Of a stretch of DNA of 5,708 nucleotides, positions 1-5,050 are shown piece by piece (position 1 is the stretch's first letter; every line of letters starts with the position of its first letter). Both the position numbers and the translations under genes were made by a program. Under the pieces are notes generated by a model, which saw only the letters and a program-made list of their open reading frames with translations, ran no database searches and was not told the origin of the DNA. Origin of the DNA: a virus; the IMG/VR virus record IMGVR_UViG_3300045988_004566; one strand, 5' to 3'.

Positions 1-85
1 ACCTATGGGGCATGGGTCAAATAGAGATAGCACAAGCAGTGCCAGAAACATATAGATATGTTGCAGGATACGTAACAAAAAAAAT
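1..85. repeat. Wrap-around copy of 5624-5708 (terminal redundancy of a circular contig)
   Basis: Base-by-base identity with the last 85 nt of the window. The rep reading frame is continuous across the junction. Confidence 0.95.
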
Positions 86-899: not shown

Positions 900-928
900 T
901 TGACGCGCGACAAAATATATGGTACAAT
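900..928 (+). promoter_or_regulatory. Sigma70-type promoter: -35 TTGACG (900-905), 17-nt spacer, extended -10 TGgTACAAT (920-928); A-rich UP-like tract upstream (885-899)
   Basis: Read directly from the sequence. The hexamers are near consensus, the spacing is optimal and a TG extension is present. It sits 25 nt upstream of the peptidase start, at the end of the long non-coding block. Expected transcription start is about 934-937. Confidence 0.7.
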
Positions 929-953
929 CCACAATAGAAAGCGAGGGAGCAAA

Positions 954-1343
954 ATGATAAAAAGCTATTTCATGGCCAGAGACGCAAACGAAAAAGTAGG
1001 ACAGCACTTTAAAGTAAAAGAATTTGCATGTAAAGACGGCTCACAAGTAGTATTCATAGACGAGCACCTAGTATCAATCTTAGACATTCTCAGAAACAAA
1101 ATCGGAAAACCAGTTATCATAACCAGCGGATACAGAACACCGGAGTGGAACAAAAAATGCGGAGGGGCAAAGTATAGCTACCACATGTGCGGCATGGCAG
1201 CAGACATCCGAGTAAATAAAATGAGCGCAAAAGAAATTGCCAACGAACTGAATGCAATCGTACCGGATGAATGCGGCATTATCGTATACAATAGTTGGGT
1301 ACATTTCGATGTACGAACCAGCAAATACAGAAAGGAGGTATAA
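954..1343 (+). CDS. Zinc D,D-/L,D-peptidase of the M15 (LAS, Peptidase_M15_3/VanY-like) type; putative peptidoglycan hydrolase, 129 aa
   Basis: The motif string matches the M15 family: FKVKEFACKDG...GKPVIITSGYRTPEWNKKCGGAKYSYHMCGMAADI...IIVYNSWVHFDVR. It shows SGYR, N..GG, S.H..G.AAD and VHxD elements. Putative zinc ligands are His 1182-1184, Asp 1203-1205 and His 1302-1304. SD GAGGGAG (943-949) precedes the ATG at 954. The track start at 900 (TTG) is the -35 box of the promoter. Confidence 0.85.
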   Translation: MIKSYFMARDANEKVGQHFKVKEFACKDGSQVVFIDEHLVSILDILRNKIGKPVIITSGYRTPEWNKKCGGAKYSYHMCGMAADIRVNKMSAKEIANELNAIVPDECGIIVYNSWVHFDVRTSKYRKEV

Positions 1344-2062: not shown

Positions 2063-2465
2063 ACGATATGAAGAAGGGCGAGAGCCCTTCTTTTCAGAAT
2101 CAGGAGAAAAATTCCGAAAGCAATACATCTGGACAAAAGACGAGAAAGGGCAGGAAAAACTGCAAGAAACAGCACCAATTGACATCCAGCAAGAAATTGA
2201 GTCGTATTCAGATGAATGCGATATTAAAAACATTGTCCGAAAAGCTAGTTTCGATCCGCAGTTTCTGGAAAGTCTGTCACAGGGAGCACTAAACGGAACA
2301 GAAGTGGATATCACCGAATTCCCGCAGAACATTCACGAGTATCACAGGATGATAGCAACCGCACAAGCAAACGCAATGAAGCTTGAAGAACTGCAAAAAA
2401 TGGCAGCAGAAAAAGCAAAAGCAGAACCTAAAGCAGAACCTGAAGCGAAGGAGGAAGAAAAGTGA
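2055..2465 (+). CDS. VP3: Internal scaffolding protein VP3, 136 aa
   Basis: GGAGG (2041-2045) lies 9 nt upstream of the ATG at 2055, which overlaps the upstream stop (ATGAATAA). The conserved SDECDIKNIVRK block matches the (K/S)DECDINNI(M/V) block of Chlamydia-phage-type scaffold proteins. The C-terminus is acidic and lysine-rich. The stop overlaps the VP1 start (GTGA). Confidence 0.85.
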   Translation: MNKRYEEGREPFFSESGEKFRKQYIWTKDEKGQEKLQETAPIDIQQEIESYSDECDIKNIVRKASFDPQFLESLSQGALNGTEVDITEFPQNIHEYHRMIATAQANAMKLEELQKMAAEKAKAEPKAEPEAKEEEK

Positions 2466-4141
2466 ATCGAAACAATGAACGACACTTCAACCAAATTCCA
2501 GAAATGAAGGCAAGTCGAACACGGTTCAACCGAGACCAGACAATCCTCACAACATTTGACTCCGGAAAACTAATTCCGTTTTACGTAGATGAAGTATTAC
2601 CGGGCGACACCTTCAACGTAAACACATCAGCAATCATCCGGATGACCACACCGAAGTATCCGGTAATGGATGATGCATTCATTGATTTCTACTATTTCTA
2701 CTGTCCTAACCGTATTTTGTGGGAAAACTTCAAATACTTCATGGGCGAAGAAGAAAGCACGCCATGGATGCCATCGAAAGAATACAAAGTGCCAAAAATC
2801 AAAATTCAAGGAACAGATGAAGACCCAAAACCAGCAGAAAGAACAATCCTGGACTACATGGGAGTGCCCACAAAAATAAAGAAAGCATTCGAAATCAATG
2901 CACTACCAATTCGAGCATACGTAATGATCTGGAATGAATTTTTCAGAGATGAAAACGTAGACAATCAAGCAGCATGGAGAAAAAACGACAGTGATGTAGA
3001 ATACCAAGCAAGTGAAACTACAATAGATAGTCTGCTGAAACTCGCAGAAAACGGCGGATACTGCTTACCGGTAAACAAATTCCACGACTACTTTACCAGT
3101 TGTTTGCCGTATCCTCAGAGAGGGCCAGAAGTGACACTGCCGTTAAATGGTAACGCGCCAGTTGGAATGTATAAAAACACAGATCTAACAACGTTTGGAA
3201 CGGTAGGAGGACACACCACAATCTACTTAAACCAAGAGCTAAGCGGAAGCGCACTTGCGCCAAATATCGGCAACAGCCAAAACCCAAACTACAAAGGATA
3301 TTCGCAAGTAACAGGCAGCTCAGACCCGGGAAAGCAAGTGAACGACACGGCCTACTTAGGTGCAGACCTTAGCAAAATAACCGCAACAACTATCAACGAC
3401 TTGCGAAAAGCCGTAGCAGTACAGCAGTACTATGAAGCACTTGCAAGAGGCGGCAGCAGATACCGTGAACAGGTGCAAGCACTGTGGAACGTCACAATCA
3501 GCGACAAAACGGTACAGATTCCTGAATATTTGGGTGGTGGACGCTATCACGTCAACATGAATCAAATTGTCCAGACCAGCGGGCAGCAGAACAACACAGA
3601 TACACCCATCGGCGAAACTGGCGCAATGTCAGTGACACCGGTAAATGAAAGTTCCTTCACCAAATCTTTCGAAGAACACGGTTTCGTCATTGGCGTATGT
3701 TGTGTGCGACACAATCATAGTTACCAGCAAGGCCTGGAACGTTTCTGGAGTCGAAGCGACAAGCTGGACTACTATGTACCTCAGTTCGCAAACTTAGGAG
3801 AGCAGCCTGTAAAAAAGAAAGAAATCATGCTCACCGGCGAAGCAACAGATGAAGAAACGTTTGGTTATCAGGAAGCATGGGCTGACTACCGAATGAAGCC
3901 AAACCGGGTATCTGGTCTCATGAGAAGCAACGCAACAGGTACACTGGACTTCTGGCACTACGCGGACAACTACAGCACCGTACCGACATTAAGTCAGGAA
4001 TGGATGGCAGAAGGAAAAGCAGAAATTGCGAGAACGCTCATCGTACAGAATGAGCCGCAGTTCTTCGGTGCAATCCGAGTAGCGAACAAAACGACAAGAC
4101 GTATGCCGTTGTACAGCGTACCGGGCTTGTACAAACTGTAA
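2462..4141 (+). CDS. VP1: Major capsid protein VP1 (Microviridae F-protein family), 559 aa, GTG start
   Basis: Several hallmark motifs are present: N-terminal RHFNQIP...SRTRFNRDQ..LTTFDSGKLIPFYVDEVLPGDTF, plus TINDLRKAVAVQQYYEALARGGSRYREQ, IPEYLGGG and FGYQEAWADYR. AAGGAGG (2448-2454) lies 7 nt upstream of the GTG at 2462. The first in-frame ATG (2504) would delete the conserved N-terminus. Confidence 0.97.
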   Translation: MNRNNERHFNQIPEMKASRTRFNRDQTILTTFDSGKLIPFYVDEVLPGDTFNVNTSAIIRMTTPKYPVMDDAFIDFYYFYCPNRILWENFKYFMGEEESTPWMPSKEYKVPKIKIQGTDEDPKPAERTILDYMGVPTKIKKAFEINALPIRAYVMIWNEFFRDENVDNQAAWRKNDSDVEYQASETTIDSLLKLAENGGYCLPVNKFHDYFTSCLPYPQRGPEVTLPLNGNAPVGMYKNTDLTTFGTVGGHTTIYLNQELSGSALAPNIGNSQNPNYKGYSQVTGSSDPGKQVNDTAYLGADLSKITATTINDLRKAVAVQQYYEALARGGSRYREQVQALWNVTISDKTVQIPEYLGGGRYHVNMNQIVQTSGQQNNTDTPIGETGAMSVTPVNESSFTKSFEEHGFVIGVCCVRHNHSYQQGLERFWSRSDKLDYYVPQFANLGEQPVKKKEIMLTGEATDEETFGYQEAWADYRMKPNRVSGLMRSNATGTLDFWHYADNYSTVPTLSQEWMAEGKAEIARTLIVQNEPQFFGAIRVANKTTRRMPLYSVPGLYKL

Positions 4142-4151
4142 GAAAGGAGGA

Positions 4152-4178
4152 AGCCCGGAGAAATCCGGGCTATTTTTT
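4152..4178 (+). terminator. Intrinsic (rho-independent) terminator between VP1 and VP2
   Basis: A perfect 8-bp stem, AGCCCGGA (4152-4159) pairing with TCCGGGCT (4164-4171), closes a GAAA loop. It is followed by A then TTTTTT (4173-4178). Confidence 0.8.
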
Positions 4179-4180
4179 AA

Positions 4181-5050
4181 ATGGCAGCATTATCAGGATT
4201 ATTAACAGCGCTCAACGTAGCCGGAAACATTGCAAGCACAGTTGGAACATTTGCAAACGCTGGTAAACAAATCGCCGGCGCATTCGGCGGATGGGGTCAA
4301 GAAGGCGGAAGCCAAAGCCAAGGCGGAAGCCAAAGCCAAGGCGGCGGACATTCAGAGAGCGGAAGCCAAGCCGGAACAAACATTCAACAGGTAAACGACT
4401 GGCTTAAACAGGCATACGCATACCAAGGGCAAGAAGCCGCCATGCAAGGTAAATACAACAGTCAAAGTATGCTTAAACAGATGGGTTACAACACCTTACA
4501 AGCAATCATGCAAGGCGTATACAACCACATTGAGAACAATGTAGCCATGAACTACAACAGTGCAGAAGCACTAGCAAACCGTGAATGGCAAGAGCACATG
4601 AGCAATACAAGCTATCAACGTGCCGTTGAGGACATGAAAAAAGCAGGGCTCAATCCAATCTTAGCATTCGCAAATGGTGGCGCAAGCACACCGGGTGGAA
4701 GCGCGGGAACAATCAGCGGTGCGAGTATGGGACTGGCGAGCAGCAGCGCACTAGGAGTGAGCAGAAGCGGTGGATTTGTACCAAATGCATACTCAAGTTC
4801 AAGTTGGAGTCAAAGCGATTGGTATAATGCAGCACAAAGCTGGCAGCAAATGCTTAGCGAAACACATATGACACCGTACGGACTGCAAAAGGCACTTACG
4901 GAAGTCGGAGACAACACAAAAGAAGCCATCACAAAGGCAACTGATAAGATGGGAAAAGGAAAAAGCACAGAACAAAGCAGAAGTATGAAACCGCAGGACA
5001 AAACAGGGTCATACGGAGAAAAAAGAAAGCCGGGTGATTATCTTAGATGA
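4181..5050 (+). CDS. VP2: Minor capsid / DNA pilot protein VP2, 289 aa
   Basis: It follows VP1 as in gokushoviruses. The N-terminus is hydrophobic and Gly/Ala-rich, followed by a Gly/Ser/Gln low-complexity tract. The conserved block NTSYQRAVEDMKKAGLNPILAF (about 4601-4681) matches the (S/T)..QR...D(L/M)K.AGLNP.L signature of VP2 proteins. Confidence 0.9.
   Translation: MAALSGLLTALNVAGNIASTVGTFANAGKQIAGAFGGWGQEGGSQSQGGSQSQGGGHSESGSQAGTNIQQVNDWLKQAYAYQGQEAAMQGKYNSQSMLKQMGYNTLQAIMQGVYNHIENNVAMNYNSAEALANREWQEHMSNTSYQRAVEDMKKAGLNPILAFANGGASTPGGSAGTISGASMGLASSSALGVSRSGGFVPNAYSSSSWSQSDWYNAAQSWQQMLSETHMTPYGLQKALTEVGDNTKEAITKATDKMGKGKSTEQSRSMKPQDKTGSYGEKRKPGDYLR
4304..4344 (+). repeat. Tandem 18-nt repeat inside VP2 (GGCGGAAGCCAAAGCCAA, 2.3 copies) encoding GGSQSQ GGSQSQ GG
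   Basis: There are exact copies at 4304-4321 and 4322-4339, followed by a partial GGCGG at 4340-4344. Confidence 0.9.

Follow-up and report, generated by a model that had tools for sequence, protein, structure and literature searches.

A conserved single-domain M15 peptidase of gut gokushoviruses: a likely endolysin without a recognisable holin

Introduction

Gokushoviruses are among the most abundant viruses of the human gut, and how they leave their hosts is still not established. In one infant-gut study, microviruses made up 52 % of the mean relative abundance (PMC10159846). The IMG/VR virus record IMGVR_UViG_3300045988_004566, all 5,708 nucleotides (nt) of which were analysed and are referred to here as the window, contains a gene for an M15-type zinc peptidase (954-1343), the only recognisable lysis-related gene that these gokushoviruses carry. 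The question raised by this locus is how such an enzyme would reach the cell wall from a genome in which an earlier note, made from the sequence alone, had seen neither a holin nor an export signal. That note left three options, namely an endolysin with an unrecognised export route, a virion-associated entry enzyme, or a recently acquired moron. The first of these fits best, and we put at roughly 0.68 the probability that the peptidase is a soluble M15A endolysin of a gut gokushovirus, expressed from an operon promoter and reaching the wall by a holin-independent route.

The window is a gokushovirus genome (Microviridae, Gokushovirinae), in agreement with the earlier assignment to a microvirus. 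It is a circle of 5,623 nt, with an 85-nt terminal redundancy at the window ends. The gokushovirus core set, namely VP1, VP2, VP3 (Chlamy_scaf), VP4, VP5 and a VP8-like protein, was recognised by Pfam and PHROG matches (VP1 matches Pfam Phage_F at 2e-137 and VP5 matches Pfam Phage_ORF5), and all of the recognisable genes are on the + strand. A megablast match to a GenBank entry, KX513868 (Human gut gokushovirus), has 83 % DNA identity and covers 94 % of the genome.

Family, active site and predicted fold of the peptidase

The open reading frame (ORF) of the peptidase runs from ATG 954 to the stop codon TAA at 1341-1343. The start was placed at ATG 954, and not at TTG 900 upstream, because the N-terminal sequence MIKSY is kept across 40 homologues. 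The gene and its ribosome-binding site are as follows.

943-949, + strand: GAGGGAG, Shine-Dalgarno sequence for ATG 954 of the peptidase gene at a spacing of 4 nt, read from the sequence
954-1343, + strand: M15 peptidase, 129 amino acids (aa), Pfam and PHROG matches

The product is a basic (pI 9.0), soluble protein of 14.7 kDa with one domain. It matched PF08291 (Peptidase_M15_3) with E=5.3e-24 and 84.9 bits (cut-off 23.2) over profile positions 2-108 of 108, and PHROG 894, annotated as endolysin, with E=4e-40. A weaker match was to PF05951 (2e-06), and these two were the only Pfam matches at E≤0.01, with none to VanX (PF01427) or VanY (PF02557). The profile of the L,D-endopeptidase MepK (YcbK), NF053624, gave 41.1 bits against an equivalog cut-off of 185, and MepK is only a distant relative. 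The earlier M15/LAS call was borne out by these profile hidden Markov model searches.

The motifs of the family are complete. They comprise S75-Y-H77-M-C-G80-M-A82-A-D84, W115-V116-H117-F118-D119 and R61, the last residue of SGYR (residues 58-61). The predicted metal ligands are H77 (CAC, 1182-1184), D84 (GAC, 1203-1205) and H117 (CAT, 1302-1304), and the motifs and ligand codons listed in the earlier note (1182, 1203 and 1302) were all found where it had placed them. In a 41-sequence alignment H77, D84, H117 and D119 are invariant, as is R61, and the C-terminal KYRK(G/E)V is near-invariant. Judged by its sequence, the product is a single-domain M15A/Peptidase_M15_3 zinc peptidase (clan MD, LAS) with an intact active site.

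The sole solved structure found by sequence was 1LBU from Streptomyces albus (E=0.0019 when the peptidase sequence alone was used, 1e-4 when the family profile was used), in which H154 and D161 align with H77 and D84 of the peptidase. 1LBU is the zinc D-Ala-D-Ala carboxypeptidase of S. albus G, the M15A type enzyme, and it shares the His/Asp zinc ligands and the LAS fold. However, this bacterial enzyme of 213 aa is secreted, has an additional N-terminal domain, acts as a carboxypeptidase and not as a lytic endopeptidase, and is only ~25 % identical over 95 aligned positions.

An AlphaFold2 (AF2) model of the peptidase had a predicted local distance difference test score (pLDDT) of 76.5 and a predicted template modelling score (pTM) of 0.74. 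The earlier note had proposed superposing a predicted structure on LAS enzymes, and the matches listed when the model was compared with the PDB using Foldseek (top 50) were all LAS-fold proteins, with template modelling (TM) scores of ~0.5-0.56 and E=2e-3 to 3e-2. They include 1lbu, Hedgehog-N, VanXY, the endolysin LysECD7 (8q2g) and ChiX (5opz). Because the model is of moderate quality, these E-values are weak (2e-3 or worse), and the similarity to VanXY and VanY is also weak (TM-scores 0.37-0.46). Against BFVD, the model matched phage peptidases with TM-scores of 0.82-0.86 and E-values down to 8e-13, and the matching proteins include some of 646-1,191 aa, one of them with a gp5 OB-fold domain. 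A fold of the LAS/Hedgehog-N/DD-peptidase type is predicted for the peptidase.

Distribution, genomic position and selection

A protein search with the peptidase gave 1,392 matches. The best 120 clusters among them are all at least 78 % identical to it and all carry a precomputed PF08291 assignment, and identity reaches 96 % in the best metagenomic cluster. The contigs are ~0.5-6 kb long, many being genome-sized (5-6 kb) and one 29 kb. In 103 of the 120 closest clusters the length is 129-130 aa, and the protein is free-standing. In IMG/VR, a scan confirmed at least 581 loci that encode a relative of the peptidase.

The survey of the insertion site that the earlier note had suggested was run on the related loci. 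All 82 of the 82 examined carry the gene in the same slot, with VP4 and the non-coding block on its 5' side and the small genes that lead up to VP5 on its 3' side. The peptidase is fused to VP1 or VP2 in none of these 82 relatives. Pairwise Nei-Gojobori medians for the peptidase are 0.15 for non-synonymous divergence (dN), 1.10 for synonymous divergence (dS) and 0.12 for dN/dS, which is comparable to the dN/dS of VP5 (0.08) and VP8 (0.09). The peptidase is under strong purifying selection, and a dN/dS of 0.12 at a dS of ~1.1 indicates that the gene is old and constrained within these viruses. This excludes the recently acquired moron among the earlier options, since the gene is in the same slot in every related locus examined and is present in at least 581 IMG/VR loci. 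A recent, functionless moron or an assembly chimera might have been suspected from the horizontal origin of the gene from tailed phages or bacteria (PMC3394797) and from its location in a variable genome region. However, the catalytic residues do not vary, many samples have yielded independent assemblies, hundreds in all, with the gene in the same position, and it follows a conserved promoter (see below) and has its own Shine-Dalgarno site. We regard that explanation as effectively refuted.

Two lineages carry peptidases that are 75-84 % identical to each other. In the lineage of the window, VP1 is ~65-95 % (mostly 73-90 %) identical to the VP1 of the window. In the second, the identities to the window are ~41-49 % for VP1, 38 % for VP4 and 28 % for VP2. 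DNA homology between the two lineages is almost confined to parts of the non-coding block, the peptidase gene and o40, the 40-aa gene that follows it, the exceptions being a few short stretches in VP1 and 4103-4193, at the VP1 end and terminator. The sharing of a peptidase segment between distant lineages fits the recombination described by Kirchberger et al. 2022. A third gokushovirus lineage has o40, VP8, VP5 and the core genes but lacks the peptidase, and other small ORFs are found in the slot.

No integrated close relative of the peptidase (>60 % identity) was found in 185,579 reference genomes, and a prophage-based assignment of the host is therefore not available. The best match to the peptidase in what is listed as a cellular genome (54 % identity) is in a 4,935-nt contig, JBAYAG010000045.1 (locus L083), from a Paceibacterota metagenome-assembled genome (MAG) bin. 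This is probably a microvirus binned into the MAG and not a bacterial gene.

Neither the gene nor its slot is new, and the window adds one more genome to a published group that is already very large. Roux et al. 2012 (PMC3394797) found M15_3 peptidase genes in 11 human-associated Microviridae, five of them gut gokushoviruses, showed that they had been acquired horizontally, noted their affinity to Faecalibacterium and Clostridiales homologues that adjoin holins, and proposed an endolysin role. Kirchberger 2020 repeats this proposal, Kirchberger et al. 2022 count peptidases among the accessory genes associated with lysis and describe a 700-nt peptidase segment recombined between distant microviruses, and Zheng et al. 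2024 report M15 peptidases in cultured marine microviruses. In the GenBank entries of close relatives the gene is called 'peptidase M15' or 'similar to peptidase'. The M15_3 peptidases of gut gokushoviruses from human and pig (KX513868, KX513876/77, KT264791, MG945233 and others) are in the same slot, have 62-81 % protein identity to that of the window, and have been given the same published reading, a horizontally acquired putative endolysin of Clostridiales/Faecalibacterium affinity; there is no difference of substance. That such genes had been noted sporadically, as the earlier note believed, is an understatement given the sections on this gene in Roux et al. 2012, the later papers, the GenBank annotation and the IMG/VR loci. 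What is added here is the lack of a strongly hydrophobic ORF across ~80 genomes, the dN/dS estimate, and a promoter shared with the operon. The remaining point of interest is holin-free release, and the contrast with the holin-flanked homologues of tailed phages is not itself a discovery.

Promoter and operon

The features referred to in this and the following sections are listed in map order around the circle, starting from VP4.

5047 through the window junction to 443, + strand: VP4 replication initiator, Pfam and PHROG matches
444-953: non-coding block, 510 nt
869-882, + strand: GC hairpin GGCGCTAAAGCGCC, closing the non-coding block just upstream of the promoter, read from the sequence
900-928, + strand: candidate sigma-70-type promoter TTGACG-17-TACAAT with extended -10 TG, score 10/12
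1331-1339, + strand: Shine-Dalgarno sequence AAAGGAGGT of the next gene, within the last codons of the peptidase gene, read from the sequence
1345-1467, + strand: o40, 40-aa acidic amphipathic-helix protein
1475-1699, + strand: o74, conserved small protein, 74 aa
1683-1805, + strand: VP8/J-like Arg/Lys-rich protein, 40 aa (phrog_10695, 2.9e-11)
1823-2062, + strand: VP5, Pfam Phage_ORF5 and PHROG matches
2057-2465, + strand: VP3 scaffold, Pfam Chlamy_scaf and PHROG matches
2462-4141, + strand: VP1 capsid protein, Pfam Phage_F
4152-4171, + strand: intrinsic terminator, hairpin and T-run, 3' of VP1
4181-5050, + strand: VP2, Pfam and PHROG matches

The site at 900-928 is one of two 10/12 promoter matches in the window and the sole one with an extended -10. 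The promoter scan as a whole was not above chance (12 sites versus 8.1 ± 2.6 in shuffles), and the case for this site comes from its conservation. A regular expression for the hairpin GGCGCTAAAGCGCC matches 66 of the 83 peptidase-bearing genomes, and TTGA[CA]N-16..18-TAnnnT is found at most 260 nt after the hairpin in 57 of these 66 relatives, compared with 1.3 % of shuffled windows. The TG is present in 40 of the 57. This site is very likely a real promoter.

The earlier note had described it as a private promoter of the peptidase gene. The site itself, TTGACG-17-TACAAT with TG, is present and conserved, but 'private' is unsupported, as there is no terminator before VP1, the genes are packed, and the first ORF after the promoter is often a different one. 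In the window, no + strand terminator was found between the peptidase gene and VP1. The terminator at 4152-4171 (an 8-bp stem with 6 GC pairs, followed by ATTTTTT) is the only strong one on the + strand and the first downstream of 900. The ORFs from the peptidase to VP1 are tightly packed or overlapping. The next start codon, ATG 1345, is 1 nt past the peptidase stop codon, and its Shine-Dalgarno sequence lies within the peptidase gene, which suggests that the two genes are translationally coupled. Strong Shine-Dalgarno sites precede every gene in the window. The simplest reading of this arrangement is that one operon promoter serves the genes from the peptidase through to VP1, the whole rightward operon.

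Among the 55 relatives in which the first ORF after the conserved promoter could be called, it is the peptidase in 30; in the other 25 it is a different ORF of 50-77 aa and the peptidase is second. The slot between the promoter and the peptidase is variable, with at least five unrelated families of 50-77-aa ORFs, for example those beginning MKHxYELR..., MNEKSYKHAV..., MKxxYEYTxNKKVKFYRS..., MTxKSYRxEMTNTKTGKK... and MEYSNEYFNRNGWNAS.... Genomes with ORFs in this variable slot include L001, L007, L008, L013, L021, L025, L041 and L049, and there are others.

Search for a membrane-crossing component

Hydrophobicity was scored as the Kyte-Doolittle mean over 19 residues, in all + strand ORFs of at least 25 aa in every frame. 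The highest score of the peptidase is 1.03, in an internal helix, and the statement in the earlier note that it has no N-terminal hydrophobic or signal segment is correct. The same holds for the small ORFs of 40 and 74 aa, neither of which is hydrophobic and in neither of which the earlier note had seen a transmembrane stretch. In ~80 relatives, scores of 1.5 or above are limited to two chimeric long contigs, a few short unconserved ORFs (27-49 aa, scoring 1.5-2.2, in L007, L009, L020 and L039) and the VP2 N-terminus. The peptidase-less lineage is likewise without a strongly hydrophobic + strand ORF. A single-gene lysis protein of the phiX174 E type was also not found, there being no transmembrane ORF in any + frame of the window and none that is conserved in the ~80 relatives.

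On the same scale, phiX174 E scores 2.8. However, the annotated holin of the Faecalibacterium prausnitzii phage FP_oengus scores just 1.43, and a weakly hydrophobic partner could therefore escape the filter. The VP2 N-terminus (4181-4290), the sole moderately hydrophobic segment of the genome, scores 1.30 in the window and 1.3-1.56 when the relatives are included, and so falls in the range of such a weak holin. No canonical route across the membrane (holin, pinholin, or signal or signal-arrest-release (SAR) sequence) is encoded in any obvious way, and the earlier observation that there is no holin or export signal now extends to ~80 relatives and to 120 homologues of the peptidase.

Several candidates were set aside. 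Many hydrophobic ORFs are found on the minus strand, but all recognised genes are on the + strand and these ORFs are a composition artefact of the T-rich complementary strand. The composition of the + strand is strongly skewed (A 37.6 %, T 18.5 %), and this skew leaves the + strand frames nearly unable to encode a hydrophobic segment. On the complementary strand, spurious 'transmembrane' ORFs abound, a trap for naive holin searches. Longer forms of the peptidase with a signal peptide were not found either, as the database entries of 133-200 aa are gene calls from upstream starts with hydrophilic extensions, and TTG 900 is unconserved. An overprinted, phiX174-E-like ORF within VP1 (2670-2879, 69 aa) combines a weakly hydrophobic N-terminus (1.32) with a very basic tail. 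Its length in the relatives ranges from 4 to 84 aa, most versions being cut to 26-27 aa, and the hydrophobic run is broken. It is probably not a gene.

Comparison with characterised lysis systems

Compared with a canonical holin-endolysin system, an enzyme homologous to endolysins is present in the window and the membrane-crossing component was not found. LysPM1 of Proteus phage Homer is an experimentally active, Zn-dependent, single-domain Peptidase_M15_3 endolysin (PMC13461873). Like the peptidase of the window, LysPM1 and the ST79 and Spp64 endolysins, which have also been characterised by experiment, are ~116-130 aa long, consist of one Peptidase_M15_3 domain and have 1LBU as the nearest structure. 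All share SxHxxGxAxD, (W/F)xH, an acidic residue at the second position past the last His, and a conserved Arg, which in LysPM1, as here, is found 16 residues before the first His. However, these three come from tailed double-stranded DNA phages of Gram-negative hosts with holin and spanin cassettes, whereas the window is a single-stranded DNA (ssDNA) genome of ~5.6 kb with no membrane protein.

The endolysins of FP_oengus and FP_Toutatis, both phages of F. prausnitzii, are bare catalytic domains of 137-138 aa, lacking a wall-binding domain, with 43-44 % full-length identity to the peptidase, and the order of their host is the one predicted for gut gokushoviruses. They differ in that the gene closes the tail module and has as neighbours an annotated holin and strongly hydrophobic small proteins (scores of ~2.6), none of which the window encodes. 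Endolysin homologues from Vibrio phages were likewise matched, identities to the Faecalibacterium and Vibrio endolysins being 43-46 %, and the Vibrio phage gene is followed by two 'TMhelix' proteins. Most homologues in Clostridia prophages have small transmembrane neighbours.

Two further comparisons are with lysis functions of other microviruses. Gp7 of the Rhodobacter microvirus Ebor is the first verified peptidoglycan hydrolase of an ssDNA phage, as demonstrated by zymogram (PMC11980548, 2025). It resembles the peptidase in being an accessory wall hydrolase of a microvirus, ~146 aa long and absent from smaller microviruses. As a precedent for the present enzyme it was rejected, because it belongs to another family, with no Pfam M15 match and no significant BLASTP similarity. 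Ebor also encodes a predicted 45-aa membrane protein, Gp1, and the window genome has no such protein. phiX174 E likewise lyses from a very small microvirus genome without a holin-endolysin pair. However, E is an overprinted membrane protein (score 2.8) that inhibits precursor synthesis (MraY), and there is no such ORF in the window.

Role of the peptidase and alternative explanations

According to the reading preferred here, the peptidase would be transcribed from 900-928 as the promoter-proximal cistron of the series peptidase-o40-o74-VP8-VP5-VP3-VP1, with the transcript ending at 4152. As the first cistron of a shared operon, it would be made alongside the virion proteins and accumulate in the cytoplasm. 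Once across the cytoplasmic membrane it would cut peptide stems or cross-links of the sacculus and so free the progeny. Our working guess is that late membrane damage, by VP2 or by host processes, would let it out; that the VP2 pilot protein itself doubles as the membrane lesion is a weaker variant of this proposal. The same catalytic module serves as a single-domain endolysin in tailed phages of Faecalibacterium, Vibrio, Proteus and others.

The host is most likely to be found among the Clostridiales of the human or animal gut. The nearest cellular homologues of the peptidase are 39-46 % identical and come mainly from Clostridia MAGs. A strong Shine-Dalgarno site and an extended -10 are Firmicutes-type expression signals. 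These two observations are consistent with each other and with the prediction, from CRISPR spacers, that gut gokushoviruses infect Clostridiales (PMC10159846). If the proposal is correct, a very abundant clade of gut gokushoviruses would lyse Clostridiales by means of a soluble M15A peptidase, without a phage protein that clearly spans the membrane.

Several points weigh against this reading. A cytoplasmic endolysin by itself does not lyse cells, and a signal, SAR or transmembrane segment is absent from the peptidase and from its 120 closest homologues, nor does any + strand ORF of the window (at least 25 aa, any frame) score above 1.32. The AF2 model is of moderate confidence and the metal site is predicted. 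As far as our searches reached, no functional study, biochemical or genetic, of any microvirus M15 peptidase was found; here the earlier note was right, but its remark that there was no functional work does not extend to the M15_3 endolysins of tailed phages or to Ebor Gp7, which have been characterised. Finally, the existence of lineages with the same core genes and no peptidase means that gokushoviruses can exit without it, and the peptidase may be auxiliary rather than the trigger of lysis.

This last point leads to the possibility that the peptidase is an accessory helper, which would speed up or complete the breakdown of the wall after the envelope has been compromised by another, primary lysis mechanism. 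The peptidase-less lineages share VP4, o40, VP8, VP5, VP3, VP1 and VP2 and have other small ORFs in the slot, the slot after the promoter is variable with several unrelated ORFs of 50-77 aa, and the gene, itself 75-84 % identical, has moved between lineages in which VP1 is 41-49 % identical. However, the wide retention of the gene and the strong purifying selection on it speak for its importance, and the hydrophobicity scan revealed no candidate for a primary lysis gene in the window or in ~80 relatives. A helper also overlaps with the endolysin proposed above, as the wall would still be degraded at exit and the two differ only in who acts first. We consider a purely accessory role rather unlikely. 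A role at entry, with a few packaged copies opening the wall locally during DNA delivery, recalls the M15A domains that large tail or virion proteins of tailed phages can contain (BFVD, 646-1,191 aa), and a trace of Gp7 was found in purified Ebor virions (PMC11980548). The same proteomic data showed significant amounts of VP1, VP2 and a basic protein alone, with the hydrolase as no more than a trace (PMC11980548), which counts against it. So do the free-standing form of the 129-aa peptidase, for which none of the 82 relatives has a fusion to VP1 or VP2, and the lineages without the gene that infect their hosts anyway. A T=1 capsid, moreover, has little spare volume, and we judge this alternative very improbable.

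The remaining alternative would dispense with a route across the membrane altogether. A peptidase acting in the cytoplasm in the manner of VanX, VanXY or VanY would clip the D-Ala-D-Ala of UDP-MurNAc-pentapeptide or lipid II, cross-linking would fail, the cell would burst as it grows, and no holin would be needed. This would be an enzymatic version of the inhibition exerted by phiX174 E, Qbeta A2 and phage M Lys. To our knowledge, all small lytic phages that have been characterised (ssDNA or ssRNA) lyse by blocking the synthesis of precursors, and there are M15 dipeptidases and pentapeptidases that are cytoplasmic. The absence of a holin, signal peptide or transmembrane protein here and in ~80 relatives speaks for such single-gene lysis, as do the best PDB sequence match, 1LBU, being a D-Ala-D-Ala carboxypeptidase, the presence of VanXY and VanY among the Foldseek structural matches, and the Arg that binds the terminal carboxylate of the substrate in 1LBU (PMC13461873), which is invariant here as R61. 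Against it, the closest characterised or annotated relatives are endolysins that act on the sacculus and stand beside holins in tailed phages, and with 43-46 % identity to endolysins a different substrate would not be expected by default. PF01427 and PF02557 were not matched at E≤0.01, and the TM-scores to VanXY and VanY are just 0.37-0.46. The lack of VanX and VanY matches lowers the case for membership of those families and leaves a similar mode of action, which we consider unlikely. A soluble endolysin that reaches the sacculus by a holin-independent route remains the reading that we prefer.

Neighbouring small genes and non-coding elements

The product of o40 is acidic (pI 5.5), with an amphipathic helix and no hydrophobic segment, and the gene has a dN/dS of 0.06, a sign of very strong purifying selection. 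Its matches are confined to gokushoviruses. It accompanies the peptidase in the two lineages with VP1 just 41-49 % identical and is also found beside VP8 in the third, peptidase-less lineage. As a dedicated export or lysis partner o40 was rejected, being acidic, non-hydrophobic, restricted to gokushoviruses and present without the peptidase. It is unannotated in most GenBank relatives, and in the three gokushovirus lineages it is at or near the VP8-like gene; o40 and VP8 are adjacent in the peptidase-less and second peptidase lineages, and o74 is between them in the lineage of the window.

o74 (dN/dS 0.17, no transmembrane segment) is conserved in the lineage of the window and its matches are all to microviruses. 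Pfam, PHROGs and NCBIfam contain no family that it matches. The o74 and VP8-like genes overlap by 17 nt, at the 3' end of the former and the start of the latter. The VP8/J-like protein (pI 12.0), found in all 82 relatives, is probably a DNA-binding virion protein.

Several elements were noted in the non-coding block. No RNA family in Rfam matched anywhere in the window at E≤1. Directly after the VP4 stop codon is a 19-bp near-perfect inverted repeat (457-499), for which folding as ssDNA gives -16.2 kcal/mol (z = -5.7 versus shuffles). As no T-run follows the repeat, it is not a classical terminator. At 551-598 there is a GC-rich tract of alternating purines and pyrimidines, (GCGCGCAC)n, with 16-nt direct repeats and a Z-DNA-like composition, and its folding is not better than that of shuffled sequences (z = -0.8).

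The segment at 601-798 is rich in GTTGAAA(A/G)N repeats and has ~75-86 % DNA identity in otherwise unrelated gokushoviruses. It was also found at 3614-3809 in L068, at 788-984 in L005 and in MT135268, and its orientation relative to the genes is opposite in the second peptidase lineage and in MT135268. Repeats of this type are also visible in the peptidase-less lineage. The segment may be an array of protein-binding sites, an origin or an element with a regulatory role.

The GC-rich stretch at 808-893, with the hairpin GGCGCTAAAGCGCC at its end, has 86-91 % identity between lineages in which VP1 is ~41-49 % identical. Conservation far above that of any coding region suggests a cis-acting element (an origin, a packaging signal or a terminator), and the folding of the stretch as ssDNA is no better than that of shuffled sequence (z = -1.15). 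Outside the non-coding block, VP2 contains a short tandem Gly/Ser/Gln repeat (GGSQSQGGSQSQGG) at 4295-4345.

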